Assembly (NCBI GenBank): GCA_013115125.1
Contig: JABANN010000047.1
Span: 1 to 64,000 of the forward strand
DNA: 64,000 bases
Origin: Perkinsus olseni
Lineage: Eukaryota
Direction of reading: 5' to 3'
The position numbers and the translations under genes are program-made. Below are positions 35-64,000 of the stretch, one piece after another. Position 1 is the stretch's first letter. Every line of letters starts with the position of its first letter. The notes under the pieces were generated by a model that saw only the letters and a program-made list of their open reading frames with translations, had not been told where the DNA came from and did not search any database.

Positions 35-508
35 AGACATCAGCAAATTGGCGGATAGGGTTGCCGTTGCCGTTGCCGTAGCCTATAGGCTATAGGATTC
101 ACGCCAAATAGGCTTCTGAATGGTATAGTCGTTGTTGAGAATCTCCACCCGAAGCTTCAACGGCTGCAAAATGATCGGTTCGTCATCCCGGATGACTCAT
201 CCGTGACGAACGCCTTTGGTGCAAAAGACTCAATTCGACTGTCTCATTTCCACTGCGTCAGTCATGGGGCTTTGAAAACTCCTCATCGCGTACACACGCC
301 TAGTTCCCCTCGAAAGCATGAAATTCCCTTCGCACTGCCCTACGCCTTTGGAGGTTCGTTCTGTGTTCAGTGTCTTGGACACATCCACTGCAAAACAACG
401 CATCTCAAAAGATTGAGATCGAGAAGATAGCGTTATGAGACGGGAGAATCTCAAATTGCGCCGCGGGCATCCTCCCGCTTTACGGCGCGGTTGTCTGGGG
501 CGCTGGAC

Positions 509-3465: not shown

Positions 3466-3715
3466 CGTTACACCATCAGTTGTTGACGCCGAGTTGGAAA
3501 TGAATGGAAGAAAGATATCTTACAGACTTTTCACTATTATCAAACACACTCAACCTTAGTCTAATCGGAAACGTATTAATCAATTAACGAAAATTGAAAC
3601 TTTCTACGATTCCTTTGAGTACTTCGGAGAGCGTAAAGCTCGTACGACGTAGGCCACCGTCTTCATCAGTCGAGAGAATCATCGTGAAAACGTGGTGGAA
3701 CTATGCCGACTTGGA

Positions 3716-6544: not shown

Positions 6545-7023
6545 CTCTGGAAAATTAATCTCGGGCATACTGAGAAGACAATCACACAACTCAACCGTTG
6601 AGCAACCAAGTGTTCCTCCTATCGACCACCCAGCGAACGACACCACATTCGTAAGCCTTAATACTTCCTAAAAGCGAGTATTTTTCAGAGCGATTTCGAA
6701 ATACAAGACCACGAACTTTCGATTTGCTGATACCATAAATTTCACAACTCCCAGCGTTGTCAATGAACACTCAACACAAGAGTCGAGACTTCTCTTGAAA
6801 AGTAGTAACTAAGAACAACAGCTATTCAAACATCGTGTATCGGACAGAGACAACGATCTAGTCGCTGGAAATTATAGTAAGCCGATGAAAGTAATACCAA
6901 CTTTTTAGAAAATCTATCTATGAATAACAACACTAACAGTCACGCATGGCACCCGCCACAACAGCTACTCGTTGGTAGTAAAGAGAACGACACTTGAACA
7001 GAAAATACGTAACACAGGATGAA

Positions 7024-8652
7024 CTAACCGAAGTTCTTGATGGCACCATAAGAGCCCACAGCGATCATCGGAACGCACCACGTCAAAACAGCGAAGATGA
7101 AGCACGTTTCCACCTTGTGAGCTTTCACGTACGCCTTGAAGGAACCTGACAATGGCAACCATTCGAGAGAGAATCTTCCACTCCGCCACCAGAGACACTT
7201 ACCGAGCACAGTCTGCTGCATTCGCATGTAATATATACAGGGCATCATAGCGACCATAAAGACCATTGTGAAGGAACCGAGGATGTCGAGCAGACTGGAG
7301 ATGTTGGGAACGGAAACCGCTATTATAGTTGTGAAGATGATACAGGCAAGACGAGCCAGGAATCTTTTGATGCCCGCCTTGCGGGAGTTATCATCAACAT
7401 CGATGTTCAATACGTACTCGAGAGAGGAGGCAATCGGAAGCAAAAGTACCTGAATAATAACAAATGGTGTTCGACATCAACCTATTCTGTATCTTGCAAG
7501 GTCAACCACTAAGATACTTACCACATAATGAGGCACGCTAGACATGACGATTGCGATCAGAGTAACGTAGGCCCATGCTCCGGAAACAGGCTCGTTCGGC
7601 GGGACGATAGAATCCATGATCGGATGGTCTCTCAACGAGCGACCGTACCCGAAGTAACCACAAACACCAATACCGAAATAGACGGTAAAAATGATACCGT
7701 ACGCCCATCTCGAAACCGCTACGAAATGGGTCGGCTTGGCCATGTCCCTCACGAGAGTTGCGACAGAGTTGGTAACGTTAAAGGAGAGGATGCAAACGCC
7801 GAAGTTGGTCGCAATTTCGATGAAGTCCGGAACGAAAATATCATACACGATTGGCTCATCGGAAGTTATCTGAGAACGACCAGCATGAACAAAAGATACG
7901 CGTTAACCATTAGAGCCTACCCCAACCATGAGGCCATTGGCGCTGACCACGGCAAACAGGGTTAGGATGGACACCATACCAATGGCGGCGACATAGGATA
8001 CTTCATGCATCGTACGTAGGAAGGTGAAGGGTATAAAGAATACAGCCCAGATGACAATCCAAATACGTTGGGATATCGATGGTACCAATTTAGTAGTATT
8101 CTCGCCCAATAACACCAACAACGATGCACAGATACCCGACATAGTGACATGAACAATAAGGGCTGTCAACGCACGACCTGAGCAAACGAAGATATACTCT
8201 AAACCCGGTCCATCGAAAAGTTCAGCTTACCCCATTTTCCGTAGCATGCTCTGCCGAGGTCCTCATAGGTGTAGACGTGCCCTTTCTCCTTTGGGGTAAG
8301 GGCAATACCCATGTAGAGCTTGGAGACGGCAAAGCCAGCAAAGAGGACACCAAGGGTGAGGACGAAGGCGCCACCGACCCACCCACAGGAGGCGAATACT
8401 GTTGGCAGCATCACCACACCCATACCTGCACAAGGGGCCACTCAAGTGAAAGCAACGAGGGCGGTCTTGACGCTTACCAATAGCGGAGAGAACTATGCTG
8501 AAGACGCCTCGGATATCCGAGCACTTGCCGTGGTGCGCTGACGGGTCGACTTCCTCCTTGCTGATGTCATCGAAGCTTTTCACCTCTACCTCGGGCAGAT
8601 GATGGATACGTTTCAGCTCAACTTTGGCGGACTCTCCCTCGGTTATTGTCAT
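7024..8652 (-). CDS. AAAP/Aa_trans-family amino acid transporter, copy 3 (compact introns)
   Basis: MTITEGES...GKCSDIRGVFSIVLSAIG followed by the same motifs; short GT-AG introns. Confidence 0.92.
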
Positions 8653-10119
8653 TGTATAAGAAACAGTAACTGGTGGTAAGTAAGATACGCTGTAGCCACC
8701 CGACCCAGCCGGAAAATTTTATGCTACATCCTCATGGTCAATAGTTTCTGCACCACAGTACTGTTAGTCCGTTGGTATTTTCATGTTCGCTAGAGGATAC
8801 TCACTTGAGGAGAACACAAACGGAGCTAGAGAAAGATACTCGGATAGGATGGTGACACCAGCACCACCAGGAGAATCAAACCAACGTGTGCGAAATAGCG
8901 TTGAGAGTATGCAAGATTTGACAAGATTGCAAGATCGGTTTCTTTCGTGCACGCAGGCGTTCGTACGTCGGCTGTTCCTTTTTGCAGCAATGTTTTAGTA
9001 TGTGCGAAGACGCTCCAGAAAAAGCCACCCCTTCGGTTGGTCGGGTGAGGAGGATGATATCAGACATCGAAGATCGGCTGGCCAAGGAGGCCCGTGAGCT
9101 GCTGAGAGGCCGGTCGTCGTCTGTTGGTGACGATGATGATGATCAGCGACCAGAGAATGGGTGATGTACCTGCGGGAATGCCTGCATCGCAAAGGGGTGT
9201 CGGTGAACATTATGGGGGAATGAGGCTGATCGAGGCGACGAGTAGTGGCGAAAAATGCTCATAGTGTCGGAGGATGGTCAGCTTCGAGTGAACTCTTTGC
9301 AGCAATGATCGTCGATGAACCGGTCAAACAGATCGTAGAATGAAAATTCACCGCTAAATTTTTTGTTCATACATCTGAAAATAAATTAGATCCATGGTCC
9401 ACGGCGCGAGTCGGTAATGATATACGTATGTTGCCCGCTGATGGCATAACCGAGTTGGTTGGGGGGCCGAGTTGCGGTCCTTACAGATACTCTTTAGAGA
9501 AGAAGATTGACGCCTTCAATGGCGAAGGGCCCTCGGAAGCCGATGAAGATGGGAGGGATTTTTCTACCGCAATCTCGTCGACTGAGGATCCGAACCCTCC
9601 TACCGAGTGCACTGACGAAATTTCGGAGAGAGAGTTGCATGGTAAACGATTGATCGACACTTTAGTTGAGCGAACATATGTAGGGCAACGTAATGAATGC
9701 AGCATTTGACTAAGAGTTTCGCAGATATCACACGACATTCGAAGACGGGAGGGACATCTCCGAACGCCGGAGTCTGGAAAGTGATCAAAATCCACTGCCC
9801 TCCACACCTCGTAAAATGTTATGCCCTTCAGAAGACAGAACGAGGCTCAGTCGGCGAGGAATTCTATCGGTGATCGCAGCCGTAGCGGGATCGAAGTACG
9901 CCGGGAAAAGGTAAGCCTCGAGGAAGGGGAAGGAGTCGAGTATGGCGGCGACTGGTGGCCATCGGACTAATCTGCTGGAGGATGGGCTCTGGTCTTCAGT
10001 TGCATATGCAACGGATTCGCAAACTCAGCGACGAAGTCTCAGAGTGCACTTTCACACCGAAGGTGAGCTCTCAAGTGGAGTATAATCGAATTTGCCGGAG
10101 CCTCTGAGTTTGGTATAAG

Positions 10120-14383: not shown

Positions 14384-14536
14384 GCCGTGACGTGTGGCGA
14401 GATGGCCGAGTGACCTCCACATCTTGTCTGAGACGAGACGCTTACTCGCATAATCCTCGGCGGGAGTCTCCTCAATCCATCTCTTGGCCGAGACTGTGAT
14501 GGTTGCCGCTTTTTAGTTGTCTGTTCATTTGACTCG

Positions 14537-15811
14537 ATGAAGCTCCTCTCCTTCGTCCCGCTCATAGCCGCATCGAGCTCCGCAGACGTTTACGACAGCA
14601 AGACTATCCTGTCGATCACCTCCGACGATGCTTTTGTCGACGTGCGGGACGTCCCGCAGCGCCTCGAAAACGCCAAGCTCGCGTCCAACGCTGAGATGAG
14701 CGCCTTCCTCAAGACAGCAACAATCAAGACTCTGAAGTCCTCGGGCCTGCAGGTAGTCTCTACTTCCGATGACACGGTGAGCTCCGCCGATCTCTGTGCC
14801 TACTTGAAGAACGCAGCCTCCGAGCTACCCGGTCTGGAGTGTGAATGCTCCCCTAACTTCGCCATCAAGGAAGAGACCACCGACGACGATCTCGGCGTCA
14901 ATGACCCTCGCGCTTCGTGGCAACGGGCGTTCAAGCGGATGAACATGAAGGAAGTGTGGAGACTGTCTAGACCCTACGCGAGGCAGACCGTGAAAGTAGC
15001 TGTTATGGACAACGGCCTCAACTTCAGCGATCCTGAGATCTCCCCTTACCGTGGTTTCTTCCGTAAGAGAAGCGGTGGGTTCATTGACGGTGGCTGGAAC
15101 TTCGTGGACGACAGCTCGAACTTCACGTCGGTTAATCAGCATGGTCAAAGGTGTGCCAGACTCATCGCGGCCAGGAGGAACAATAACCTCGATATGGCCG
15201 GCATGTCATCTAATGTACGTCTGGTGTCTTTGAGAACCCTTAGCGAAGATGGTCATGGCAGCTGGTGGCATATGGCGGAAGCTATGGACATGGCAGTCGA
15301 CATCGGGGTTGACATCGTATCAATCTCATTGGGTGAGTTCATATCGAAGAGTTACGCGGACCGGGTCCTCAGTAAGGCCTTCAAAGCAGCAACTGACCAG
15401 GGTATCACTGTCGTCGCCTCTGCTGGTAACGATAATAAGGCAGCTGTCCATTACTATCCATGCGCGCTTCCTGGTGTGACCTGTGTGGCCTCCATCGATA
15501 TCCAAGACACTCTACAAGTCTCCGGTTTCAGCAACTACGGTAACGACGTTGACATCGCTGCCTATGGCTCTGGCGTCTACACTGGCTACAACGGGCTCTC
15601 CTCGGGCACGTCTTTCTCGTGTCCCATCGTCTCTGGAGCGGTGGCGATCCTGCTGTCTATGGGTGTTAAACCCAAGTACGTTGCTGGGATTCTTACCTAC
15701 AACGTTGATCGGTTCTCCAGTCCTCTGAAGCCCTTGAAAAGGAACGCTGGGGCTCTGAACCCGCTGAAGGCCGTCCAGATGGCCATCGATTATCCGGCTC
15801 TCAGACGCTAA
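14537..15811 (+). CDS. Secreted subtilisin-like serine protease (S8), copy A, intronless
   Basis: Signal peptide; catalytic Asp (VAVMD), His (HGQRCA), oxyanion Asn (SAGND), Ser (SGTSFSCP). Confidence 0.95.
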   Translation: MKLLSFVPLIAASSSADVYDSKTILSITSDDAFVDVRDVPQRLENAKLASNAEMSAFLKTATIKTLKSSGLQVVSTSDDTVSSADLCAYLKNAASELPGLECECSPNFAIKEETTDDDLGVNDPRASWQRAFKRMNMKEVWRLSRPYARQTVKVAVMDNGLNFSDPEISPYRGFFRKRSGGFIDGGWNFVDDSSNFTSVNQHGQRCARLIAARRNNNLDMAGMSSNVRLVSLRTLSEDGHGSWWHMAEAMDMAVDIGVDIVSISLGEFISKSYADRVLSKAFKAATDQGITVVASAGNDNKAAVHYYPCALPGVTCVASIDIQDTLQVSGFSNYGNDVDIAAYGSGVYTGYNGLSSGTSFSCPIVSGAVAILLSMGVKPKYVAGILTYNVDRFSSPLKPLKRNAGALNPLKAVQMAIDYPALRR

Positions 15812-16260
15812 TAGGCTTCGGTTCCATATACTTCTGTTCTCATATGACAGGCCCGATTCTTTTTTTTACCGCATCTTGGATACGTCATCTACATCGCCTA
15901 TATATTAGCTTCAGCTCAGATATAGAATCGGAGTGTTGCCGAGACCCTCCCAGGGAGGTTCGACGCACGCGGCAATATCCAGTTTAAGCCCAGATTTACT
16001 GGCTCGTCTTTTTAATATAATCTTTTAACCTGAACTCCATCAATACGCACAATCCAGCAGCTAGGGATCCTGACTCAGGGTATCCAACGAATCTCTTGTT
16101 GCGTTCACTAGTTCAGTGGAATCACGGGCGATGCAGAATGATTGTCTCATTTCAACGCGTTTGCCTGGACAAGGCAAAGGTCTAATTCGTAGAGTGTACC
16201 AAGTGTAGCATTTTGCTACCCGGATAACACATGTGTTATTATTAATTTGCCAACATTATA

Positions 16261-18272: not shown

Positions 18273-18925
18273 CGGGCTGTTCAGTAAACTTTGGCAAAAC
18301 CTATTCCAGAAGTGGTTCTCAGAATTAATTCTCAGAATGCATTCCCGAATCCTGTTCAGTGAACTCTATTCCCAAATACTTCAGAACGAGTTCTGGAATC
18401 AGTTCCGAGATGTGTTCAAAGAACTCAATTCTGAGAATCGATTCTCAGAATAGATTCTGGCAGCCAACTTGGCGATATCCAGAGCTGCGGTCCGTTTTTC
18501 CAGAGGGATGCGCACGCCGCTCGAGAAATGACTTCGCTAGGTTATAACACAACTCAGGCATACTTCATTCAAGTAGTCTAGTGCGTTAGCCGGTTGCGTC
18601 GACACTCGTACCACGGTGGTACTACCACCCTGGTTCGATCCTCGCTAGCGATTGCCTCTGTACTTTGGATGGGCATCACGAACTTGGCCGTCCTCAGTTG
18701 TGATGTCACGCGCCACGAAACTCTCAGCATAGGTTTCACCTATTCCGAAATAACTCATTCTGGAATGCGCTTCAGAACCGATTCCGAAGTTCACTGAACA
18801 GGTTGGGAACCGATTCTGGAACCCATTCCAGAATCTGTTCTGGATACAGTTCACTGAACACGATTTCGCCGAAACTAATTCTGGAATCTATTCTGAATTT
18901 CGGAATAGGTTTACTGAACACCCCG
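18273..18925 (+). mobile_element. MITE family B, copy 1 (3-bp TSD, PIF/Harbinger-like)
   Basis: TIR CGGGCTGTTCAGTAAAC...GTTTACTGAACACCCCG; TTG on both sides; many TTCTGGAAT/TTCTGAGAAT subterminal motifs. Confidence 0.9.
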
Positions 18926-19213
18926 TTGGTACTGTGCCCGGGGGCCCTGGGCCAGGATACATCAGAGCTTGGCTAGTAAAATTTTGGCAGGGCAATAATA
19001 ACATAGGTGTAAACGCGTTGTGATTAGACAATCACTCTGTATGGCCAGTCGTCCCGTCGAATTAGCAAACACACCAGCTGCTTTGTTGGATACCTTGGTG
19101 TAGCATCTCGGGTTACAAAGCGCAACTGTTGGAAGTTCCAACATTTCCAGATATTTACCCCTCGTCATATGTTGCGTTCCAACTTGGAACGCAACATATG
19201 ACGAGGGGTAAAT

Positions 19214-20277
19214 GGCCCTATAACTTAGTAGTCCTTCCTTAAGGCGTCCCTTAAAGGAAGGAGTCCTTAACGATCCTTCCTTAAGGGGCAACTCCTTATA
19301 ACTTTTTAATTTTAAGGATCGTAAGGAGTTCCTTTAAGGTACACCCCAAGGAGCATAAGGTGCGGTTTCTCACCGAAGATGAGCGGAGCGATGCGGGAAT
19401 TGAGGTGATCTATTCTGGACTTAGCGTATTTATGGGAAGTTCTATAAACAGTCCGCACGCTATTGGAACTTCCTACGAATGTCTCTAAAACTTAAGTCCG
19501 GTGACTGAGCTTCCGAAATGTTAAGTTGGCTTCTGCCGTGATGATCGAACACCGCAAAAAACTAGTAAGACTCCATTAGCGGGAGTCGGGAGCAAGACTC
19601 TCCGGGTGCGGTATACAGCAGAAATTTTGTTACTTAACGCTCCACGCGGCACCAGCCATGAGAGTCAGCGCAACTTGCAGAGCGCCGGCTCATCAATCGG
19701 GCAACCCAAGTTCAAGTCCTGGCAGAGCCCCATTGGAAGGCTGCTCACAGAGTAACGTGAAAATCTCGAAGTGCAGCAGCGCTGGACTGAAGATGTGGCG
19801 GGCTAATGACTCTGGGGAGGAGAACGATTACTTGACGCCGTCAAGTTGACGGAGAACGCCATCGGCCATGAACCCCCGGACACCTGAATTTGGTTGCAAT
19901 GATGGCTTCTTGATGTTTGGCGGCGTGGTTATTATGTCGCGCTGGCCATCGAGAGGGTGCCGGATCGATTCTCGGGGTTGTCAATTCTAAATTTTCTCAC
20001 TCAAGGAGCCCGTAAGCCGGGGGTAAGCTAGGTCGGAGCAACCTTACGATCCTTACGCTCCTTGTGTAAGGTCCTTAAGGAGCGGCTCCTAAATGTTATA
20101 AGGAGCAACTCCTCAGCTTCCTTCCTTAAGGACCTCACGTTAGGACCTGAAGGTCCTTACTTTAAGGAAGGAGGCTTAGGAACTTACGCCCCTAAGCCTC
20201 CAAAGTTACAAGGAGGAGCTCCTTCCTTAAGCAACTTACGGTCCTTCCTTAAGGAAGGAGTCCTAAATTATAGGGCC
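19214..20277. mobile_element. Non-autonomous TIR element family C (3-bp TSD AAT, PIF/Harbinger-like)
   Basis: TIR GGCCCTATAA...TTATAGGGCC; AAT duplicated; CCTTAAGGA-rich subterminal repeats; empty site GGTAAATGTCTGCAGCT in the paralogous flank at ~28391. Confidence 0.92.
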
Positions 20278-21652
20278 AATGTCTGCAGCTAACGATGTTG
20301 TGCTGTAACGATCAGAATGCGCGACTGATCAAGTCCGCGATGGAGAATAAGTTATCGTTTAACAGTCTGGCGTCGAAGGCGAGCGGGTCCGCGACGCTAA
20401 GAGCTTGGCATGACTGGGGCTGCACACTGGCTATTGGATTGCCACAATCTGATTGTGCGAATTGATGGCGTCCAGCGTCCAAAATGAGATAAAAATACGA
20501 GTCGGGCTTGACTTGTGGAGACAGAAGAGAAAAGACTTGCATCCTACATAATAGGCCTTACTAGCGCCTGCTTCTCAAAATCGGATAATCGATGGCCATC
20601 TTGACCCCCTTCAGCGGGTTCAGAGCCCCAGCGTGCTTTTTCAAAGGCTTCAGAGGGCTGGCGAACCGATCAACGTTGTGAGTGAGAATTCCAGCAACGT
20701 ACTTGGGCTTAACGCCCATAGAAAGGAGGATCGCGGCCGCTCCCGAGACGATGGGGCACGAGAAAGACGTGCCCGAGGAGAGCCCGTTGTAGCCAGTGTA
20801 GACGCCGGCGCCGTAGGCAGCGATGTCGACGTAGTTACCGTAATTACTGAAACGGGAGACTTGTAGAGTGTCTTCGACATCGATGGAACCCACGCAGATC
20901 ACGCCGGAAGCGGACATGGATAGTGCGTGTCAGCGAGCGCATTGTCGTTACCAGCTGACTCAGCTGGTAACGACAATGCGCTCGCCTCAGCTGAGGCGAC
21001 GACGATGATACCCTGGTCAGCAGCTGCTTTGAAGGCCTTACCGAAGATCCGCTCCCCGTTACTCCTCGACATGAAGTACCCAAGTGAGATTGATACGATA
21101 GCAACCTCGATGTCGACTCAGTCGACTCGACTGCCATGTCCATAGCTTCAGCCAAATTCGCCCAGCCACCATAACCATTATCTTCATGGGTTCTCAAAGA
21201 CACCAAACGTACATTAGGTGACATGCCGGCCATATCGAGGTTATTGTTCCTCCTGGCCGCGATGAGTCTGGCACACCTTTGACCATGCTGATTAACCGAC
21301 GTGAAGTTCGAGCTGTCGTCCACGAAGTTCCAGCCACCGTCAATGAACCCACCGCTTCTCTCACGGAAGAAACCACGGTAAGGGGCGATCTCAGGATCGC
21401 TGAAATTGAGGCCGGTGTCTATAACGGCTACGCCGATGGTCCGCCTCGCGTAGGGCGCAGACAGTCTCCACACTTCCTTCATGTTCATCCGCTCGAATGC
21501 TCTTTGCCTCCAAGCTTGAGGGTCATTGACGCCGAGATCGTCGCCGGTGGTCTCTTCCTTGGTGGCGAAGTTAGGGGAGCATTCACACTCCAGACCGGGT
21601 AGCTCGGAGGCTGCGTTCTTCAAGTAGGCACAGAGATCAGTAGAGCTCAGTG

Positions 21653-22787
21653 GTTTCACCTAGGCGTACCCCACGCGCCTCCAGGCGCGTGTCGTGTACC
21701 GTCGTACCTTCACAGACGCGCCTGCTGGGTCGCCGCTTAGGCGCGTCCAACGCGTCTGTTGGCACATGTCTCAGCCATGATGGCTGAGCATCGGAGTTTT
21801 TGGTATTAGTCGTCCAAAATGTAGGTTGTCGTTGCCGAATTGTCATTGTCTTCATGCCAACTTGGAATTGTCAAGTTGCTGCCAGCGTTCTTCTGCACGG
21901 GAGGGGGCCCGACTCAGTCGACTTACGGGGTGTTCAGTAAACCTATTCCGAAATTCAGAAGACATTCCAGAATGAGTTCTGGCGAAATCGTGTTCAGTAA
22001 ACTGCATCCAGAATAGATTCTGGAATGGCCCATTCCGAATGGGTTCCAGAATCGGTACCCAACCTGTTCAGTGAACTTCGGAATCAGTTCTGAAACGCAT
22101 TCCAGAATGAGTTATTTCGGAATAGGTAAAACCAATGCCGAGAGTTTCGTGGCGCGTGACATCGCAGCTGAGGACGGCCAATTTTGAGATGCCTATCCGA
22201 AGTTCATAAGGAGTTGCCGGCGAGGATCGAACCTGGGCGCTACGAGTGCCAACGCAGCCGTCTAACGCACTAGACTACTTGAATGAAGTTTGCCCGAGTT
22301 GTGTTGTGACCTAGCGAATTCTTTTCTCGGCGGCGTGCGCATCGGAAAAAACGGATCGCAGCTCTGGATATCGCCCAGTTGGCTGCCAGAATCTATTCTG
22401 AGAATCGATTCTCAGAATTGAGTTCTTTGAACACATCTCAGAACTGATTCCAGAACTCGTTCTGAAATATTTGAGAATAGAGTTCCTTGAACAGGATTCG
22501 GGAATGCATTCTGAGAATTGATTCTGAGAACTAGTTCTGGAATAGGTTTTGCCAAAGTTTACTGAACAGCCCGTTACAAGTTATGAGGGCGGGATCTCCT
22601 GCTAGGGACTGTATTTGCGGCTTTTTGATGAGCGGTGTCAGGCTTGTGTGAACAGGCTTGCAACTCCTCAAAGGCTCCCGGAGTTACCCCGGGAGCCTGG
22701 AGGAAGCCCTTCTAGGGCTCGGCCCCAGGCGCGCCTCCGGGACCCGATCGAACCACAGGCGCGTCCGAGATTTTGGCTAGGCTCACC
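21653..22787. mobile_element. Outer insertion in subtilisin B with GTG duplicated at both ends; hosts MITE B copy 2
   Basis: Absent from paralogues A, C and D; GTG at 21650-21652 and 22788-22790; only weak terminal inverted similarity (CCTAG...CTAGG). Confidence 0.7.
21926..22573 (-). mobile_element. MITE family B, copy 2
   Basis: Reverse complement of 18273-18925; TSD TTA at both ends. Confidence 0.9.
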
Positions 22788-24075
22788 GTGAGCTCAGCTC
22801 ACCGTGTCGTCGGAAGTAGAGACCACCTGCAAGCCCGAGGACTTCAGGGTCTTGATTGTTGCAGTCTTCAGGAAGGCGGCCACATCAGCGTTGGACGGCA
22901 ACTTGGCTTTTTCGAGGCGCTGCGGGAGTCCCGCAGCGGGACATCCCGGACGTCGACGAAGGTATCACTCGAGCTCATCGACAGGATAGTCTTGCTATCG
23001 TAAACCTCGGTGTGCGACTACGCGCGGAACGAAGGAGAGGAGCTTCATCGCATGGGATGAACAAAGAACTAAGAAGCGATATCACAGTTTCGGCGAATTC
23101 AAGAGGTTTCAGTCGAGCATTTCCGGGGTGAGCCTCACCACTAACCAAGGTGAAGTGCTTTAGATGTTACATATGATGTGTATCGGCCTGGTCACCCGAC
23201 TATATGGTTCGGCTAATCCCATTCATCGGAGTGAAACCTGGGCGTTCTCGCGATGCGGTGCGCGCATGCACTTCTTGCGTGACCGTGACACTGTCTAGTC
23301 GTGACGCGTAGTTTGGCTACATGAACTACGCTCTAAATCTTCGGATAAATCTGAAAGTCTCCGGATTCTATGCCCGAAATTTCCTCGGCCCTGCCCATCC
23401 TCTCCTTGTCGGATATGCGGCGACGGTCGCCGAGCGACCCCGCCTGGGATCACCTTTCGCAGCGCTGTGCAGGTTCTATCAAGTGAACAAACCATTCAAT
23501 ATAGTCCTAGTGACTGAGGAAGTACGACATTGAACGTGAGGGCGCGTCCTCAGTTGCAGCAGACATAGCCTGTCTATCTTTGTAAATTCGTTGCTTTCTA
23601 ATAGTAGTGCTCTGCAACCGAGTTGCTACGAGAGCAGCCCTTTTCCGTTAGTTCATCTTCTCGACGACCATTTATCTTGTTTATTCCGAGAAACTTTGTT
23701 TCATCGGTGTAGAACCTGCGCGATCTCGCCTTGCGTTGGGCTTGCGTGCATAAGCCCACGCGTCACGCAGTGACGCGGGGTAGCGCCTGTTCATGTCGCT
23801 AGTCCCCTGTGGATCTCGCCATGTCGAGCATCGCTGATGCTCGGCGTGCTGGTTTTCGAGCCCAGCCCGTCCCGCCCGTCCCGCCCGTCAGTCGGGGTCA
23901 GCCATCGAGGCTCTCCATCCCCTGGGATGGTCCCGCCCCTCTGTCTGTGGAGCTTGCTTGCTTGCGTCGCTTCCCACTATCTGGTTCGCGAGCTAGCGAG
24001 ATCGTAAACGGAGTTAAACTCCGGGAGTTTTATGATTCCTCCCTCACAGCATCATTTTTTCTACCACCTTCTCAT

Positions 24076-27134: not shown

Positions 27135-27277
27135 ATAATGATGATGGTAATGAATCATTACTAATGATTATGATGATGATGATGATGATGGTAATGAATC
27201 ATTACTAATGATTATGATGATGGTAATGAATCATTACTAATGATTATGATGATGGTAATGAATCATTACTAATGATT

Positions 27278-27319
<42 letters not shown>

Positions 27320-27397
27320 GTAATGAATCATTACTAATGATTATGATGATGGTAATGAATCATTACGAATGATGATGATGATGATGATGATGATGAT
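27135..27397. repeat. Compound minisatellite: GTAATGAATCATTACTAATGAT x6 interleaved with (GAT)n
   Basis: Direct reading; last copy imperfect. Confidence 0.95.
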
Positions 27398-28360: not shown

Positions 28361-28663
28361 ACTACTGTTGGGACGCAACATATGATTAGAGGTAAATGTC
28401 TGCAGCTGACGATGTCGTGCAGTGAAGGTGAAAAAGCGAGACTGGTCAAGTCTGCAAGGAAAAATATGTTATCGATCAACAGTCTGCCGTCAGAGAGGAG
28501 CGAACTCGCGACGCTAACAGCTTGGCCCGACTGGCGCTGCACTCTGGCTACTGAATTGTAGGTATTGATGGCGCCCAACGTCCAGTAAGCGTTAAAAAAA
28601 TCGGCCCTGGCAGGCCCGGCTTGCCTTATGAAGACAGACAGAGATATGAAGAATTATAGCTTG

Positions 28664-29944
28664 TTAGCGAGCTTCTCTCAGAACCGGGAAATCGATGGCC
28701 ATCTTGACGGCCTTCAGCGGGTTCAGGGCCCCAGCGTGCTTTTTCAAAGGCCTCAGAGGGCTGGCGAACCGATCAACGTTGTGAATGAGGGTCCCGGCGA
28801 CGTACTTGGGCTTAACGCCCATAGAAAGCAGGATCGCGGCCGCGCCCGAGACGATGGGGCACGAGAAGGACGTGCCCGAGGAGAGCCTGTTGTAGCCGGT
28901 GTAGACGTCCGAGCCGTAGGCAGCGATGTCGACGTAACCCCCGTAGTTGCTGAAACCAGATAATTGTAGAGTGTCTTGGATATCGATGGAAGCCACGGCG
29001 ATCACGCCGGGAAGCGCAGATGGATAGTGCGTGTCAGCAGCCTTTCCATCGTTACCAGCAGAGGCGACGATAATGATACCCTGGTCAGTGGCTGCTTTGA
29101 AGGCCTTCCCGAAGACCTGCTCCGCGTAGCTCTGCGACATGAAGTGTCCCAGTGAGATTGATACGACATCAATTCCGATGTCGACTGCCATGTCCATGGC
29201 TTCGGCCACATTAGACCAGCTGCCGGCACCATTATCCTCATGAGTTCTGAAAGACACCAAACGTACATTAGATGACATGCCGACCATATCGAGGTTATTG
29301 TTCCTCCTGGCCGCGATGAGTCTGGCACACCTTTGACCATGCGGATTAACCGACGTGAAATTCGAGTTGTCGTCCACGAAGTTCCAGCCACCGTCAATGA
29401 ACCCGCCGCTCTTCTTACGAAAAAATCCCCGATAAGGCGCGATCTCAGGATCGCTGAAATTGAGGCCGCTGTCCATAACCGCTACGCCGACGGTCCGCGT
29501 CGCGTAGGGTCCAGACAATCTCCAAACTTCCTTCATGTTCATCAGCTTGAAAGCCCTTTGATACGAAGCGTTAGGGTCATTCACGCCGAGATCGTCGTCG
29601 GTGGTCTCTTGCTTGGCGGCGAAGTTAGGGGAGCATTCACACTCCAGACCGGGTAGCTCGGAGGCTGCGTTCTTCAAGTAGGAACAGAGATCGGCGGAGC
29701 TCACCGTGTCATCGGAAGTAGAGACTACCTGCAAGCCCGAGGACTTCAAGGTTTTGATCGATGCTGTCTTGAGGAAAGCGGCCACTTCAGGGTTGGACGC
29801 GAAACTGGCGTTCTCGAGAAGTTTAGGGACATCTCGGACGTCGACAAAAGCATCGCCGGAGGTGATCGACAGGATAGTCTTGCTATCGTAAACGTCCTGG
29901 GAGATCGATGCGGCTATGAGGTGGACGGCAAAGAGGAGCTTCAT
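28664..29944 (-). CDS. Secreted subtilisin-like serine protease (S8), copy C, intronless
   Basis: MKLLFAVHLIAAS signal; AVMD, HGQRCA, SAGND and GTSFSCP intact. Confidence 0.95.
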   Translation of the reverse strand: MKLLFAVHLIAASISQDVYDSKTILSITSGDAFVDVRDVPKLLENASFASNPEVAAFLKTASIKTLKSSGLQVVSTSDDTVSSADLCSYLKNAASELPGLECECSPNFAAKQETTDDDLGVNDPNASYQRAFKLMNMKEVWRLSGPYATRTVGVAVMDSGLNFSDPEIAPYRGFFRKKSGGFIDGGWNFVDDNSNFTSVNPHGQRCARLIAARRNNNLDMVGMSSNVRLVSFRTHEDNGAGSWSNVAEAMDMAVDIGIDVVSISLGHFMSQSYAEQVFGKAFKAATDQGIIIVASAGNDGKAADTHYPSALPGVIAVASIDIQDTLQLSGFSNYGGYVDIAAYGSDVYTGYNRLSSGTSFSCPIVSGAAAILLSMGVKPKYVAGTLIHNVDRFASPLRPLKKHAGALNPLKAVKMAIDFPVLREAR

Positions 29945-31967
29945 AGCGTGAAATGAACAGAAAACTGAGAATTCGCTTTTTAAAAGCGCAACCATCACAG
30001 TCTCGGCTGATAAAAAGCTGGATTTAGGAGACTTCAGAACCCGAGGGTAACCCGAGTGAGCATCACGGCTCGCCCATCATACTCGAAGAGAGGTGCTTCA
30101 TATTTATCAGCTTGGTCAGAGGGCTATTTAGTTCCATGAAATTTGTTAATCGGTGTAGAACGCGAACGTTCTCGCCTGGCGGTGGCAGCACGGGCGCGGG
30201 GCACGCGCGTGCCATCGTCACACTGCCGCGTCGTGGCGCGCAGGTTGGCTACATGAGCAAGGCTCAAGATCCCCCGGTGGATCTATTGGTCTCTCCGGAT
30301 TCTAGGTTCGAAACCTTCCTGACCCCGACCATTGCTCCCTAGTCGGCTATTAAGTAGCCTATTAGGAGATGCCGTAGGGGATAACCTTCACGGTGCTCCA
30401 ACCTGGATTTTTCTCGCCCCTTCGTCTGCGGAGCCCGTTTACGTACCACACTCGGCCACCCTGGACATACGGCAGCTTCCAACGGGAGCATCCCATCGAT
30501 CTCATCGGCGGCTTCAGCTGAGCCCTCAACGACTGGAGCGAGTGTAGCTCGGTCCCGAGATAAGTAAATACCCCGAAACCCATTCACTGCCACGCCACGA
30601 ATATACCAGGGGACCCCAGAGAGTCCATGACAAGAGCACCGTATTCAGGAGCCGCGCAAGAGGCAGCCATTGATGAGCGGTCGAGCACGAGAGTCTCAAA
30701 CGACCAGCTATCTGACAAATGGCTGCCACCACCCTCACTTCCTCAAAGCCCCGTAGAAATGTACGAGAAAAACTCAGCATCTGCGTGTCAGCAGCACTAA
30801 TTAATATGCTCACTCGCCCAAAAACGAGATGTCGAGAAACTTAGTTGAAGGAAAAACATTCAACTTACCACTAATAAAAATTCAAGAGTTGATATCAAAC
30901 GAAAGACTTTGACTACTCTCACCATCACCCGAGAGAACCATAGCATATCTCGTTGAAAGCGGGGCCGCTTGCCAAAACCTGAAGGACAACATGGAACAAG
31001 TTGGCCGCAAGCGTCGAGTGTTCACCTTGCCCGTGGAGTCCGTCAACTCAGCGACACCAAATGCCTCCGACATTTCCGAAAGCATATCGCTTCCCTTCAA
31101 CGTCCAATCATGGACAGCCTTCACACCCACCGAGAGTTTATTCAGCCTGAAGTCGGAGCTGCTCGGCAGGGCATAAGGCAGTATTATTACGACTTACCGA
31201 GCCTCGAAGAAAGAACAAGCGACCCTCTGCTGATGGGCAGTGAACTCTCCGGGGATGGACTCGACTTTGCCGGTCTGTATATTCAGCAACTTCCAGTAAT
31301 TATACCTGAGTATATATATCTGAGTATTCAGGGTAAACCATTACTCGAAGATAAAAAAACAGTGTAGCATGCTTGTGACATCGGCACACTATGAGCAAAT
31401 CGACAACATCGATGATGATTCGTCAGATTCTCACTAACGTTGCATTGTGTTTTATAGCAACAGTGTTGCTGCAATAAGAGGCAATCTGAGGCATGTCCGC
31501 GACAAGTTGTGCTGACAGAGCCTCCTGTTTTCTTCCCTTCTTTCGCCCTTCTTTTTCTCCCTTTTTCCCCCTCTCCTTTCTCGATTTTTGGAAGAGTTGG
31601 CAGAAGCTCTACTCTTCCCCCCTCACGGATAAAACCCTACAGGGAGTGGCGGGAGGGCCAAAAAACTCAAGGAGTCTTCCTCTCCGGGATTAGTGCGCTC
31701 TATAGCACTAATCTCGTTCTTCAATGAGCAACCCACGTCACGCTCACGTGACGCTCGCCCCATGATCCGGTGCGTATGCGTACACAAGCTTCGTCGTGTA
31801 CCCCATTCCCGGCACGTCCGTACTTGTTGTTTCCGAAAGTTGCATCCGCCGTCCACAGGACACTTTCCGGCTCCCCTATAGTTTCATCCTTCAATATGGT
31901 ATGAATAAAACGATACCCCCAGACTGGACCATAATTAGGACCGTAATAACGTTTCGAGTAACTGAGG

Positions 31968-37059: not shown

Positions 37060-39530
37060 CTCATGGCGGACGAGAATAATACGACCAACGCTGCGGTTTT
37101 CATTGCGAACAGAATGATTCGAGCATCGCTCCGCTCACTTCGAGAAACAACTTCGTGAAGAGGACGACGTTCTCGCAGTAGTCCTCATTAGACTGTCCGT
37201 CAACTTCGACCACGCCCAGCACCTTATCCCCCGACACCTTGCGCCAGATGAGAACACCTAAGGAGAGCCGTCGCTGTAGCGGCCCGTACCTGCATCGTGA
37301 CTTACCCGGGGGGTTGGAAACGCTGCAGGCGGTCATGTGAGAAAACCTGAAAAACAACAATAGCAACGAAAAAACCCCCAAGAACAGGCAGGGATGAAGG
37401 TAATAAGAACAGCCTATCAGGTGACCGAGACGCCGCCGTTCTCACATCCCCCGTTCACTCGCGAACGGTCGAAAGAATGGTTTGCAAATATCTATCCAAT
37501 TGGGCTTGTGTGAACAGAGCTGATAGGAACGTAGAAGGCAATTGGGGCAAGCACCCAATAGAGCCGTGGAGAACGATGGGCGAGAGTTGGAGCGGAGAGA
37601 TGATTATGTAATGAAGAGGAACGAGCTCTCAGTACTGTATATACACTGCTGGCCGATAACACGCAAGCTTCATGAGGTCGGATGATGCAAACGACCCCTT
37701 GCTCACATCTGCCGTTCACTCGCGAACGGTCGGAAACATCGTTTGCAGATATGTAGCAGGGTGGAAGGATCATCCCGCGTGTCACCAGGCCGCAGCCGGA
37801 GCTGATCGACTATCTCTCGAGGATAGGGTGAGAAGAACCTAGAAGGAGCAGCAGTCGGTGGCAGTCGTCCTGTGACGCACAAAGGACGCATCACCACGAT
37901 GGAAGCTAACAGGAAGGCGACACACGAATGGCCATTCACAGTTCCGAGTCGAGGAGCGTGTATCATCCAAGACAATTTTCGTTTATCGTAGCCTGATGAG
38001 ATCTTGGAGTTGAAACTTCAACCGGACAATCATATCCTATTATTCATTTCTGTTATGAATGCTTCGGGAATGCGCTAGTGACCGGATCGCTTATCAGCGT
38101 CCCTCAGGGAAAACCAAGGCACTCCGACCAGACGCATCGCCAGGCCTACCAAGTGTACAAGGGTGGATCCTCGCCGACCTTCACAAATCTAACGTTCTTC
38201 ACTCGAGCCTTCGCCTTCTCTAGGTTGATCCGATGGCTCGCTATATAATACTGTTCATTGTGTTTACGTCCATACCTGAGCAATGGCATGAACACCCTAC
38301 CAGAGAGACGCTGATCCTACTGTAGCTCCCAATACTTCTCGTCTATGCCCAGTGAGTCCGAGGGCCCTCGAGACGGGTAATGGTGGAGGCGCGGTGTGTT
38401 GGGGGTCGTCCCGGCATGCGACATGCCGCTGTCCAAATCTGAGGCATCCACCACCGGAATATACACAGCCGTTGCTGTATCATCAACCCCAACGCTCCGA
38501 ACAACCAGCACGGAACCCGTGCTCTTCGCCCGTGGAATGTCACCAAGCTTGCGATGATGATGCGCTCAGGAGAGAGGCAGAACCCCCTCACCCACCAGCG
38601 GTCGAGACTGAGTCATTCAGAGGCGTCCTTGCCATACCACTGCTATGCCCCTCATCTCCCTCGGGTATCCGATAGCTGGCCACCTCGTCGATGGTCAAGG
38701 CGACAACATCACTACTTCTATACCTACCAAAATCAACATTGATTATTGAGCGCTCAATTAACGACGGACACCGGCCGCGCTGCGGATTCTGCGACCCGCA
38801 AGGTACGTAAACGCCGCTTCGTCGACACCCTGGACGTTCTCAAACCCTGCGCAGCGTGCCGGGTGACTCGAGCTCGGCGGGAAGCAGAGTGAGAGCCTCC
38901 CGAAGCCTACCAGTCGGAGAAGTGCATGCCTTTGTCGTACAGCAGTACGTAATACAAAAATCGCCGAGCCACGCCGGAGACCTCATCCTCCTCCGGAACT
39001 TTCATCACATCAATCACTTCACCCAGTAGACGCTGCTCCGATTCAAAATTTTGCACAGGTGCTACTGCTGCTGACAGCAGGAACACCTGAGGCCGGGAGC
39101 GTTCGGCCGCGGGGTGGCGGTGCTTGAGACCTACGTTGGAGCTGTCCACCCAGACCAACTGCCCGACGAAGAGGGCTCCCTCGAACGTCCGGCCGAGCGA
39201 GTTTCGAGTTTGCGGCGTGTCGGGCAGGACCTGAGGATTGATCTCCCCAGCAGAGCACGAAATGCAGGTAGTCGAATCATGGGAGTTCTACAAGAACATT
39301 GAGGAAAGAAGAAACTCGGAAACACCCTCGACCACCTCGTACGGAAAGACCATCCGATGCTTACCTTCCCTCTAACTGGCGTTGTTGTGCTCGTAGCCTG
39401 GTCTCTCGTCGGAATCGGCTCGGCCTCTTCTTCCTTGTTGACCATCGGGGCAAGCACTCCCATGGACGTGTCCTCGGAGCTCTTCCCGAGGAGAACGGGT
39501 TGGAGAACGGGGTCAGGGACCGGGACGGTC
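37060..39530 (-). pseudogene. Divergent MYST-family (Esa1/Tip60/MOF-like) acetyltransferase, apparently 3'-truncated
   Basis: Tudor-knot-like GEVIDV...YYVLLYDKGMHFSDW; FFSPYP...LHICKRCF...HMTACSVSNPPG (C2HC finger); EVDGQSNEDYCENVVLFTKLFLE; no downstream acetyl-CoA motif seen. Confidence 0.7.
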
Positions 39531-61690: not shown

Positions 61691-62819
61691 TCACCATCAA
61701 CATCATCATTAAAGTGCTCATCATACACGGGTGTCAAATTTGCGCCAATTTAATTGGCGCGGACGAGAATTTCTCGTCGAGAAAGTAGTAGGAAAATTTC
61801 CGGTGGGTATATTTTCACCTAGATTTTAGATTTTTACGATTTTAGATTTTTTCCGTTACGTATTTCACGCAGCGGCACGTAACAAACACGGCGATTCGAA
61901 ATCTAAGCTCGTGTCTGAGCTGAGCCGCTCAGCCTGAGCGCACTGTGCCACAGTGACTGTGATAACTATGCTGGTCATCGGTGCAATCAACTAATCCGAT
62001 GCGGAATGAAGGATGAATAATGGAGTCACTTGCGAGTTCGGAGAAGGCAACCAGTTAGAAAATTCGGACTGCGAACGCAAAGTTGCGTCACGAGAATGAC
62101 AAAAGCATATCCGCTGCCTCCAACATTATCTAAAACCTCAACCTTAACCTCGGGCCTCAACCTAGGCTGAATAGACTTTTGAGTGGTATAGTAGTACAAC
62201 TCGCCGAGCAGCTGACCCAAGTTGGGTTGGGTTGGGTTGAACCCAACTTGGGCTTTGCTCGCCAAGCGGGAAGTAGTCTACTACCCGCTACTACCAGCAG
62301 TCTCTACTACTAGTAGAGAGCCTCCGCCAAGTAGGGCGGTGTCGTGCCTAGATGAGATTAAGTGAGCGGATCGTTTGACACCTCCTGGGAATGCTTCGCT
62401 GAGACGTTCTGTTGTGTAGAATGCTGGCCGAGGAGACACAATGGGGCGTGCTCTACTCTGAATATCTGCGCCATCAGTATCTAGCTGTCTCATGTGGTTT
62501 CGTGTGTCTCCTCTGGATTACTATGGTTACAGTCTCTCCAGTCTCTGCATACAGTTGCCTTTGCCTTCCGGGAATGCTTCGTTCCACTGGGTTTCTGTGC
62601 ATCGCACAGAAACACAGTGTGCAACAGGGGTTGCACACTGTGTGCAACTACCCATCAGTTCAAACTATTTACACCAAGAAGCCGTACTTGCATTCTAAAT
62701 CCCTTTTCAACTACACCACCCCAGATCGGGTTATTTCCGCTGAAATGTCCTGAACCCAGCTCTTCATTCGCCGAGACTGTGATGGTGGTCGCTTCTTAGT
62801 TTCCTGTTCACTCCACGCG

Positions 62820-64000
62820 ATGAAACTCCTCTCCTTCGTCCCGCTCATAACCGCATCGAGCGGCGCAGACGTTTATGACAGCAAGACTATCCTATCGATC
62901 ACCTCCGACGATGCTTTTGTCGACGTCCGAGATTTCCCGCAGCGCCTCGAAGACGCCAAGTTCGCGTCCAACCGTGAAGTGGCCGCCTTCCTCAAGACAG
63001 CAACAATCAAGACTCTGAAGTCCTCGGGCCTGCAGGTAGTCTCTACTTCCGATGACACGGTGAGCTCCGCCGATCTCTGTGCCTACTTGAAGAACGCAGC
63101 CTCCGAGCTACCCGGTCTGGAGTGTGAATGCTCCCCTAACTTCGCCATCAAGGAAGAGACCACCGACGACGATCTCGGCGTCAATGACCCTCAAGCTTGG
63201 AGGCAAAGAGCATTCAAGCGGATGAACATGAAGGAAGTGTGGAGACTGTCTGCGCCCTACGCGAGGCGGACCATCAAAGTAGCTGTTGTGGACGCCGGCC
63301 TCAATTTCAGCGATCCTGAGATCGCCGCTTATCGAGGTTTCTTCCGTAAGAGGAGCGGCGGGTACATTGACGGTGGCTGGAACTTCGTCGACGACAACTC
63401 GAATTTAACGTCGTTTAATCAGCATGGTCAGCAGTGTGCCAGACTCATCGCGGCCAGGCGGAACAATAGCATCGATATGGCCGGCATGTCATCTAACGTA
63501 CGTCTAGTGTCTTTCAGAACTCATGAGGATAATGGCGCCGGCAGCTGGGCGAATGTGGCCGAAGCTTTGGACATGGCAGTCGACATCGGAATTGATGTCG
63601 TATCAATCTCACTGGGGGTTTACATGTCGAGCAGTGAAGCGGACCGGATCTTCGGCAAGGCCTTCAAAGCAGCCACTGACCAGGGTATCATTATCGTCGC
63701 CTCTGCTGGTAACGATGGAAAGGCTGCTGACACGCACTATCCATCTGCGCTTCCCGGCGTGATCGCCGTGGCTTCCATCGATATCCAAGACACTCTACAA
63801 TTATCTGGTTTCAGCAACTACGGGGGTTACGTCGACATCGCTGCCTACGGCTCGGACGTCTACACCGGCTACAACAGGCTCTCCTCGGGCACGTCCTTCT
63901 CGTGCCCCATCGTCTCGGGAGCGGCCGCGATCCTGCTTTCTATGGGTGTCAAACCCAAGTACGTTGCGGGAACCCTCATTCACAACGTTGATCGGTTCGC
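62820..64000 (+). CDS. Secreted subtilisin-like serine protease (S8), copy D, running off the window end
   Basis: MKLLSFVPLITASSGADVYDSK; AVVD, HGQQCA, SAGND, GTSFSCP; absent from the ORF track, presumably because no stop lies in the window. Confidence 0.93.
   Translation, partial: MKLLSFVPLITASSGADVYDSKTILSITSDDAFVDVRDFPQRLEDAKFASNREVAAFLKTATIKTLKSSGLQVVSTSDDTVSSADLCAYLKNAASELPGLECECSPNFAIKEETTDDDLGVNDPQAWRQRAFKRMNMKEVWRLSAPYARRTIKVAVVDAGLNFSDPEIAAYRGFFRKRSGGYIDGGWNFVDDNSNLTSFNQHGQQCARLIAARRNNSIDMAGMSSNVRLVSFRTHEDNGAGSWANVAEALDMAVDIGIDVVSISLGVYMSSSEADRIFGKAFKAATDQGIIIVASAGNDGKAADTHYPSALPGVIAVASIDIQDTLQLSGFSNYGGYVDIAAYGSDVYTGYNRLSSGTSFSCPIVSGAAAILLSMGVKPKYVAGTLIHNVDRF

Follow-up and report, generated by a model that had tools for sequence, protein, structure and literature searches.

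Stereotyped scars in a subtilisin pseudogene of Perkinsus olseni as probable footprints of hAT-type transposon excision

One of the subtilisin gene copies of Perkinsus olseni, here called B, is broken by four insertions that its paralogues lack. This locus raises the question of what process left these scars, and of whether their number requires a special mutation rate in a gene no longer held by selection. The question was addressed over the whole stretch of DNA analysed, 64,000 nucleotides of contig JABANN010000047.1 (assembly GCA_013115125.1), hereafter the window.

Four insertions private to subtilisin copy B

Copy B (20561..23100, minus strand) is a subtilisin (Peptidase_S8) pseudogene, whose homology to this family comes through its DNA identity to copies A and C, both of which match PF00082. 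Copy A (14537..15811, plus strand) is an intact ORF of 424 aa (Peptidase_S8, PF00082, E=4.7e-38), copy C (28664..29998, minus strand) is also intact (PF00082, E=9.2e-41), and copy D (62820..64000, plus strand) keeps its reading frame open up to the end of the window, all three being free of scars. B was aligned by MAFFT with A (14470-15830), C (28640-30010) and D (62750-64000), from which it differs moderately (84-85% nucleotide identity over ~1.07 kb, and 75-78% in the 5' 0.3 kb). The four scars that the original prediction had placed in B were all seen in this alignment and were absent from the three paralogues; as they are private to B, they are derived insertions, as had been claimed. That the +14 scars are frameshifts was also borne out, with the similarity of B to its paralogues spread over three frames, and frameshifts in pseudogenes like subtilisin B are explained by such scars without sequencing error. 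The alignment also showed that B has lost 1 nt near 20905 and 8 nt near 23013.

Two of the scars, named sites 2 and 4, match exactly a 22-mer built as T[1-7] + revcomp(T) + T[2-8], where T is an 8-bp target, and both were found by the alignment and by a 22-mer scan. At site 2 (21112..21133, +14) the paralogues have a single GTCGACTG, which is T, and B has its first 7 nt, its reverse complement and its last 7 nt. Site 4 (22921..22942, +14) has the same layout with TGCGGGAC as T. The extra bases at these two sites are therefore, as predicted, the reverse complement of an 8-mer plus a duplication, and none of them is shared by the paralogues.

Site 1 (20952..20995, +36 with respect to the paralogues) was delimited by its fold-back, the alignment and the hairpin grammar described below. 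It consists of T[1-7] of CAGCTGAG, 27 palindromic (P) nucleotides that copy the left flank, the dinucleotide CT and a complete T, in such a manner that the grammar (i=26, j=2) leaves 0 nt unexplained. The perfect 26-nt arms (20933-20958 and 20960-20985) and the gain of 36 nt agree with the earlier description of a 36-nt fold-back, but the paralogue sequence given there does not, since the paralogues have CAGCAGAG instead of CAGCTGAG. The T substitution at site 1 predates the event, because both B copies carry T.

Site 3 is split into two halves that lie 1135 nt apart. The left half (21643..21652) is T[1-7] of GAGCTCAC, that is GAGCTCA, followed by three P-nucleotides, GTG, so that just three of the eight reverse-complement bases are found there. 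The right half (22788..22802) is the reverse complement of T, GTGAGCTC, followed by T[2-8] (AGCTCAC), and forms an odd palindrome with 7-nt arms centred at 22795. The 1135-nt insert between them (21653..22787) is made of unique DNA (21653-21922 and 22577-22787) broken by a MITE, M1 (21926..22573, plus strand), and holds eight of the ten window occurrences of AGGCGCG or its reverse complement. We considered this insert as a TIR element still in place and rejected it, as inverted-repeat alignment of its ends gave scores of 30 and 37, within the shuffle range (mean 28.6, SD 5.0, maximum 43), and short-read contigs cross both of its borders unbroken. In two runs an opposite-strand joint was seen between 21926 and 22781. 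The apparent 8-bp duplication GAGCTCAG around the insert follows automatically from the palindromic target, so it is not independent evidence. Contigs that skip 21643-22796, or the 36/53 nt of site 1, were likewise discarded as empty B alleles, for their depth is of 2-3 copies or they carry paralogue letters, and they are most likely paralogues.

M1, which is nested in the site 3 insert and has duplicated a 3-bp target (TTA), has no relation to the 8-bp scars, and other copies of it exist, given the loose contig ends at 21925 and 22573 and the raised depth. Its sister copy M2 (18273..18926, minus strand) is 87% identical. Comparison of both copies revealed one private +14 scar in each, a canonical 22-nt footprint at 22022..22043 in M1, missing from M2, and another one at 18608-18629 in M2.

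A single scar geometry repeated across the window

The form seen at sites 2 and 4 is frequent. Exact 22-mers of this type number 29 in the 64-kb window against 2.4e-4 expected, and none was found in five of five shuffles even with up to 1 mismatch. All 22 nt of the canonical scars derive from the target 8-mer, and the scars have no sequence in common. With the other classes considered, 69 footprint loci were counted in the window, ~65 of them besides the four in B.

The geometry was scanned over 15 combinations, in which the duplication ranged from 6 to 10 nt and each side lost 0-2 bases, and an excess was detected only for 8 nt with one base dropped per side; 13 combinations gave 0 matches and one gave 1, which is the chance level. 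Duplications of 6, 7, 9 or 10 nt with one base dropped thus had no match in the window, and exactly one base is missing per side in the 29 exact scars. The reverse-complement pattern gave 29, 54 and 72 matches in the window at 0, up to 1 and up to 2 mismatches, against 0, 0 and 2 for a reverse-only control and 0, 0 and 3 for a complement-only control. Palindromes with arms of at least 7 nt followed the same rule, with 127 odd-centred and 20 even-centred cases, compared with 2-4 odd and 3-7 even in three Markov simulations; the odd-centred ones are enriched and the even-centred ones stay near the simulated level. Their arms reach 26-30 nt in the window.

Longer footprints with 0-65 nt of filler that obey the hairpin grammar were found at 14 loci, counted outside the array at 27.1-27.4 kb, and at none in each of five simulations. 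Short footprints (0-4 interior nt), the class that dominates in plants, Candida and human cells, showed no clear enrichment, with 13 real cases against 25 over five simulations summed, the microsatellite m=1 matches being still included. An excess of footprints with one interior nucleotide (80 matches) corresponded to trinucleotide microsatellites and was dropped. Regarding the targets, a modest preference was detected for T in the second position or A in the seventh, with 32 such cases among the 78 strand-symmetrised positions of 39 sites where 25% were expected (p=0.002); G in the first position or C in the eighth reached 42%.

The distribution of the scars bears on selection. Their density outside B is 1.04 loci per kb, and none of the 69 loci falls in the five long intact ORFs (6951 nt), where 7.2 were expected (P=7e-4). 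For B, of 1405 nt without the insert, 1.46 scars are expected and the probability of four or more is 0.06; with the intact ORFs excluded these values become 1.64 and 0.085. B thus carries about a neutral scar load, which can be explained without a special rate; the high rate after relaxed selection, which had been read from these four hits, is not supported in that form.

Excision model and its alternatives

The four lesions of B, together with the ~65 other loci of the window, are in our view probably footprints left by the excision of a cut-and-paste DNA transposon with hAT-type chemistry. Insertion of such an element would duplicate the 8-bp target T. On excision, the strand bearing the element's 5' end would be nicked one nucleotide inside the flank, and the 3'-OH of the flank would attack the opposite strand, which would close the flank into a hairpin tipped by the complement of the nucleotide next to the element. 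Opening of the two hairpins by host enzymes, 8 nt or more away from the tip, would then leave 3' tails that contain revcomp(T). These tails would anneal through this 8-nt microhomology, and after trimming of flaps and filling of gaps the product, 14 nt longer, would be T[1-7] + revcomp(T) + T[2-8]. In the variant proposed for site 1, opening would have taken place 27 nt from the tip in the left hairpin, and in the right one on the other strand and 2 nt from the tip, and at site 3 the two opened hairpins would have been joined with 1.1 kb of DNA in between.

Three sequence features of the scars agree with the putative assignment of the causal element to the hAT superfamily. The duplication is of 8 bp (29 matches, at the 8-nt geometry alone). 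The hairpin offset is of one nucleotide, as seen in the odd-centred palindromes and in the base lost on each side, and the nick offset of Hermes is also 1 nt. The Ac-type target consensus is nTnnnnAn, to which the modest T2/A7 preference corresponds.

Two scans of the window for occupied sites returned 14 and 11 candidates, most of which were by-products of inverted subtilisin or MITE copies and the rest had weak ends; within the 64 kb, no candidate element convincingly combined short terminal inverted repeats with an 8-bp duplication. One candidate, at 19285-20222, was rejected because it lies in a region full of CCTTAAGG motifs, its "duplication" being part of that repeat. A hAT transposase would carry an RNase-H-like DDE core and a hAT dimerisation domain, and no transposase domains were detected by Pfam in 12 + 121 window ORFs, the latter from the 135 ORFs of at least 100 aa, and the two longest unassigned ORFs had no similarity to solved transposases in a PDB sequence search. 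An Rfam scan of the window returned tRNA-Val only.

Another DDE superfamily able to make flank hairpins or duplications of ~8 bp, either Mutator-like, Merlin or an undescribed relative within the hAT/P/Kolobok/Dada clade, is in our opinion an unlikely source. The flanking DNA of the Mutator-like element Muta1 is made into hairpins, with duplications of 8-9 bp (PMC5499845), Merlin-related ORFs (PMC8101967) and Dada elements (PMC3706591) have been reported from Perkinsus marinus, and the scanned window ORFs included no hAT transposase. However, the duplication here is strictly of 8 nt, Dada duplications are of 6-7 bp (PMC3706591), and PMC5499845 gives Muta1 excision in yeast as precise in >90% of the cases, whereas the odd-centred palindromes and the T2/A7 preference fit Ac-type hAT elements. 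Mutator-like elements in general, with duplications of 9-11 bp (8-9 bp in Muta1) and mostly precise excision, find no counterpart here, where the 9- or 10-nt geometry gave 0 matches. Hairpins of RAG and Transib have no nick offset and go with a 5-bp duplication; the even-centred palindromes that they would give are not enriched in the window, and the geometry scan covered 6-10 nt. P elements duplicate 8 bp and leave remnants of their termini in the scar, whereas the canonical scars described here are purely target-derived. An origin without any transposon, in which double-strand-break repair through snap-back or theta-type polymerase templated synthesis copied the flank in reverse, appears very unlikely. 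Templated inverted insertions do occur at repaired breaks and the window holds no element, but random breaks would not yield a fixed 8-nt direct duplication with one base lost per side in 29 of 29 exact scars, nor a symmetric target-site preference.

The very high density of ~1 scar per kb and the lack of elements in 64 kb could also be read as programmed DNA elimination, repeated in each development by a domesticated transposase, the assembly being then the processed genome. This is highly improbable, as the scars are extra bases when compared with paralogous copies, do not vary among three samples from two studies, and include site 4, which is common to the window and to a lineage that differs at 13 of 659 positions. 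They also decay by point mutation (25, 31 and ~21 loci at 0, 1 and 2 mismatches), from which it follows that they are inherited. Some long-read assemblies contain palindromic artefacts, and small palindromes might have been made during assembly or sequencing; we give practically no credit to this possibility, since the short-read runs X1, X4 and X6, which come from samples S1-S3 of studies P1 and P2, yielded independent contigs that match B without a single difference over all four sites, and scars avoid the intact ORFs.

Known systems, tempo and polymorphism

The excision chemistry of hAT elements is already known, and it is the density and the uniformity of the scars that appear undescribed for Perkinsus; in a search of partial coverage, neither scars of this kind nor hAT elements or end-joining genes turned up in the literature on this genus. 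Footprints of hAT elements are ascribed to donor-end hairpins in PMC3499496, and hAT, Transib, RAG and MULE are compared in PMC5499845. PMC5873905, which covers yeast, Arabidopsis and Candida albicans and cites Weil & Kunze 2000, Yu et al. 2004 and Lazarow et al. 2012, describes in Ac/Ds footprints P-nucleotide palindromes centred on the complement of the element-adjoining base, with frequent microhomology and arms of up to 20 nt in yeast. The palindromic insertions of the window share this centre and the microhomology, with the longer arms (26-30 nt) given above. In those organisms Ac/Ds footprints are heterogeneous and mostly short, and the longest P-insertion in C. albicans has 3 nt, whereas the window is dominated by one product, in which a full 8-nt P-tract from both sides is joined on revcomp(TSD), and short classes are not visibly enriched. 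In addition, the window scars are natural, fixed and genome-wide, whereas the Ac/Ds data are products of reporter assays.

Another close parallel is the mechanism of the Hermes transposase, together with the coding-end hairpins of V(D)J recombination, reportedly treated by Zhou et al. (Nature, 2004). Flank hairpins, their opening by host enzymes and the P-nucleotides left behind would be common to Hermes, V(D)J recombination and the scars of the window, for which they are deduced from the letters. Colot et al. (Mol Cell Biol, 1998) reportedly argued for hairpin intermediates from the non-random footprints of Ascot-1, a Ds-like element of Ascobolus immersus. It is likewise a natural hAT-like element of a microbe with footprints that point to hairpins, but that study reportedly dealt with one locus and one element, and is not known to have described a stereotyped 22-mer or a density over a genome. 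Comparative genomics in rice (PMC4423477) led to 94 inferred excisions whose patterns are complex and hard to recognise, with only nine polymorphic hAT events (insertions and excisions together) and with common filler DNA at excision sites. Past excisions are deduced from sequences in both cases, but, unlike those described there, the footprints reported here can be recognised from a single sequence, at ~1 per kb.

This uniformity has consequences for counting. Excision footprints are usually too variable to be recognised in genomes, which is why the mutational cost and the tempo of cut-and-paste transposition are rarely measurable; the scar of the window is very uniform, and therefore countable from one sequence. 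Scars make up six of the ten indels between paralogous copies here. The roughly flat numbers of loci at 0, 1 and 2 mismatches suggest a long, continuous activity, and from this mismatch spectrum footprints would arise at ~1 per 100 point substitutions per site. We propose, only tentatively, that hAT-type scars constitute in Perkinsus a steady and countable mutation class that has accumulated for long and may still be forming, with one stereotyped scar of 22 nt in roughly each kb of neutral DNA. If this were true, such uniform scars would imply that in this lineage the hairpins made by a transposon are opened at a distance from the tip and their ends rejoined by microhomology, instead of being opened near the tip and sealed by classical end joining. 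An unusual repair repertoire could then be read directly from natural scars, which would also serve as a molecular clock of cut-and-paste transposition. The scar would report on how an alveolate parasite processes hairpin-capped breaks, and scars offer polymorphic, directional markers for strain typing.

Formation of scars may continue, because one of them is absent from a contig of a diverged isolate. The canonical footprint at 19831..19852 is polymorphic with respect to the diverged run X7, whose contig lacks exactly 14 nt, left out at 19832 with a depth of 134 of 176 among the indels listed. At site 4, by contrast with 19832, the scar is retained in X7, where one record crosses it without deleted letters; the scar states of X7 are those of these two places, its coverage being fragmentary elsewhere.

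Scars of the subtilisin paralogue B

The subtilisin (Peptidase_S8) paralogues of the window are A (14537-15811, forward strand), B (20561-23100, reverse strand), C (28664-29998, reverse strand) and D (forward strand, from 62820 onwards to the window end). The protein of A shares 94% identity with one from Perkinsus olseni and 77% with proteins of P. marinus. A four-way alignment bore out the four features originally predicted in B, all present in this copy and absent from the three other paralogues: site 1 (+36, 20952-20995), where 20933-20958 and 20960-20985 form the two perfect 26-nt arms of a fold-back; site 2 (+14, 21112-21133); site 3, a scar split into 21643-21652 and 22788-22802 by 1135 nt of foreign DNA; and site 4 (+14, 22921-22942). 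At site 1 the fold-back was confirmed, but the base ascribed to the paralogues needs correcting: they carry CAGCAGAG, and since both B copies carry CAGCTGAG, the substitution in B predates the scar event. The same alignment revealed two additional lesions in B, deletions of 1 nt and 8 nt. Likeness to the paralogues is scattered across three reading frames; B is therefore a pseudogene.

Private scars were also detected in two sister MITE copies, M1 (21926-22573) and M2 (18273-18926), which are 87% identical and carry one +14 scar each, at 22022 in M1 and at 18608 in M2, in both cases absent from the sister. When the paralogue B and MITE comparisons are combined, footprints make up 6 of the 10 indels.

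Footprints across the window

The canonical footprint of an 8-nt target T is a 22-mer, T[1-7] + revcomp(T) + T[2-8], with a gain of 14 nt. Exact 22-mers of this form occur 29 times in the 64 kb, against a chance expectation of 2.4e-4, and correspond to 25 loci, with five copies inside one minisatellite (27147-27341). Allowing up to one mismatch, 54 matches were found in the window and none in any of five shuffled sequences. When T was inferred from any of the three scar parts, 29, 32 and 25 matches were obtained at exactly 0, 1 and 2 mismatches, the control patterns giving 0, 0 and 3-4; the footprint loci net of controls (25, 31 and around 21) are roughly flat, which suggests prolonged, continuous scar accumulation. 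Among 15 geometries scanned (duplications of 6-10 nt, with 0-2 bases dropped per side), the only one in excess was that of 8 nt with one base dropped per side (29 matches), 13 giving zero matches and one a single match, at chance level. Perfect palindromes with arms of at least 7 nt numbered 127 for odd centres, with a spike of 80 at arms of exactly 7, and 20 for even centres, and Markov simulations gave 2-4 and 3-7, respectively. Outside the minisatellite, 14 further loci show longer footprints built on the same hairpin grammar, with extended palindromic tracts and filler of 0-65 nt, and no such locus was retrieved in any of five simulations. With overlaps merged, the window contains 69 footprint loci, so the scars are not peculiar to B but spread through the window.

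The repeat unit of the minisatellite (27147-27381) contains a full 22-nt footprint (T = GTAATGAT), after which come ATG/GAT trinucleotide runs. The footprint is present in five exact copies and a sixth that has one mismatch; this scar was thus amplified after its formation.

The scar density outside B is 1.04 loci per kb. B itself (1405 nt without the insert) has 4 scars versus 1.46 expected (P = 0.06), or 1.64 when intact ORFs are left out of the denominator (P = 0.085), so that the high rate under relaxed selection proposed in the original prediction is not borne out in that form. Five long intact ORFs, including A, C and D (6951 nt), have 0 loci versus 7.2 expected (P = 7e-4). With B near the window-wide density and intact ORFs free of scars, the proposal is better put as neutral DNA carrying here around one scar per kb, functional coding sequence being kept clean by selection and not by targeting.

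Proposed excision mechanism and alternative origins

This geometry is the outcome that hAT chemistry would predict. In work of Zhou et al. from 2004, Hermes reportedly nicks the strand with the element's 5' end one nucleotide inside the flank, after which the 3'-OH of the flank is said to close a hairpin. Reading through the left hairpin would yield T[1-7] and then revcomp(T), and through the right one revcomp(T) and then T[2-8]; if both were opened 8 nt or more away from the tip, two 3' tails complementary over exactly revcomp(T) would be produced, whose annealing, followed by flap removal and fill-in, would generate the 22-mer. At site 1 the left hairpin would have been opened 27 nt from its tip and the right one 2 nt from its tip, on the other strand, retaining the first base of T; the hairpin grammar (i = 26, j = 2) leaves 0 nt unexplained there. 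Site 3 is the extreme case of the filler class, its left tract of 3 nt and right tract of 8 nt being separated by the 1135 nt.

The target sites (n = 39) show a symmetric preference, positions 1-2 favouring G/T and positions 7-8 favouring A/C. T2 or A7 accounts for 32 of 78 positions (p = 0.002), and the preference agrees with the Ac-type hAT consensus. The nnnTAnnn target described for TcBuster in one account (PMC3499496) does not match this preference. The same account ascribes hAT footprints to hairpins at the donor ends, and a report on Ac/Ds describes P-nucleotide palindromes whose centre is the complement of the base adjoining the element and whose arms reach 20 nt, with 88-89% of the yeast footprints showing microhomology (PMC5873905). 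The putative hAT membership is thus a reading of footprint geometry, 8-bp duplication and target preference, not of an element or an enzyme. No occupied site (an element with 8-bp duplication and inverted ends) was found in the window, scans of 12 + 121 ORFs (the 121 being those submitted out of the 135 with at least 100 aa) detected no transposase domain, and two long unassigned ORFs resembled no solved transposase.

Another superfamily that makes flank hairpins is a possible source: the Mutator-like Muta1 makes 8-9 bp duplications, although the account concerned describes its excision as mostly precise (PMC5499845), and Merlin (PMC8101967) and Dada (PMC3706591) have been reported from Perkinsus, but the strict 8-nt geometry disfavours this origin. 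Transposon-free repair fails to account for a fixed 8-nt duplication plus a target preference, and programmed elimination is contradicted by scars that are heritable, mutating and common to several samples.

An artefact of assembly is excluded because short-read contigs of runs X1, X4 and X6 (three samples, two studies) reproduce B with 0 differences over all four sites; since the window may itself derive from one of these samples, the match is no proof of fixation in nature. In the more diverged run X7, a single-copy contig across 22886-23544 has 13 other letters and no deleted letters, so site 4 predates the X7 split. A 218-nt contig of this run, with 3 other letters, is without exactly 14 nt at 19832 at a depth of 134 of 176, and thus both forms occur in X7, whether as alleles or as repeat copies.

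Flank-hairpin excision chemistry is already textbook. What looks new is one dominant, stereotyped product, a scar density of around one per kb in an alveolate parasite, and short footprints that are not clearly enriched, whereas they prevail in plants, Candida and human cells in the accounts consulted (PMC5873905, PMC3499496). A literature search of partial coverage found no account of such scars in Perkinsus.

The site 3 insert and other features

At site 3, the insert consists of unique DNA in which AGGCGCG is frequent (8 of the 10 occurrences in the window) and which is interrupted by M1, itself carrying a TTA duplication. No significant inverted repeat was seen at the ends of the insert, and contigs run unbroken over both its borders. 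It may be captured filler, the excised element re-ligated after trimming of its ends, or DNA inserted into the scar at a later time. A one-mismatch footprint inside it (21765-21786; odd palindrome with 9-nt arms, centre 21779) means that the insert itself was also scarred. In X1 and X4, one contig each links 21926 to 22781 on opposite strands near single-copy depth (shorter sides of 60 and 151 nt), which could represent an inversion haplotype of M1 and the right part of the insert.

The MITE family contains a tRNA-like stretch (22210-22290 in M1, 18590-18670 in M2) with a T-arm-like GGATCGAACC motif, not called as tRNA by ARAGORN or by Rfam at gathering score. A 334-nt repeat (23682-24015), with a footprint at 24009 on its right border, has 5-10x depth in all four runs, and in each of them one contig connects the end of the repeat back to its start through a TTA, suggesting a MITE with TTA duplication that is either tandemly repeated or circular. 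Clusters of CCTTAAGG-type palindromic motifs (19240-19350 and 20020-20270) flank around 1 kb that is multi-copy in X7 and probably another foldback-like element, within which the footprint at 19831 sits.

Several ORF fragments at 500-8700 match the amino-acid transporter family PF01490 and appear to represent two or three paralogues in tandem, split by introns. At 37100-38020, weak MOZ/SAS and MYST zinc finger matches, under curated cut-offs, suggest exons of a putative MYST-type histone acetyltransferase gene.
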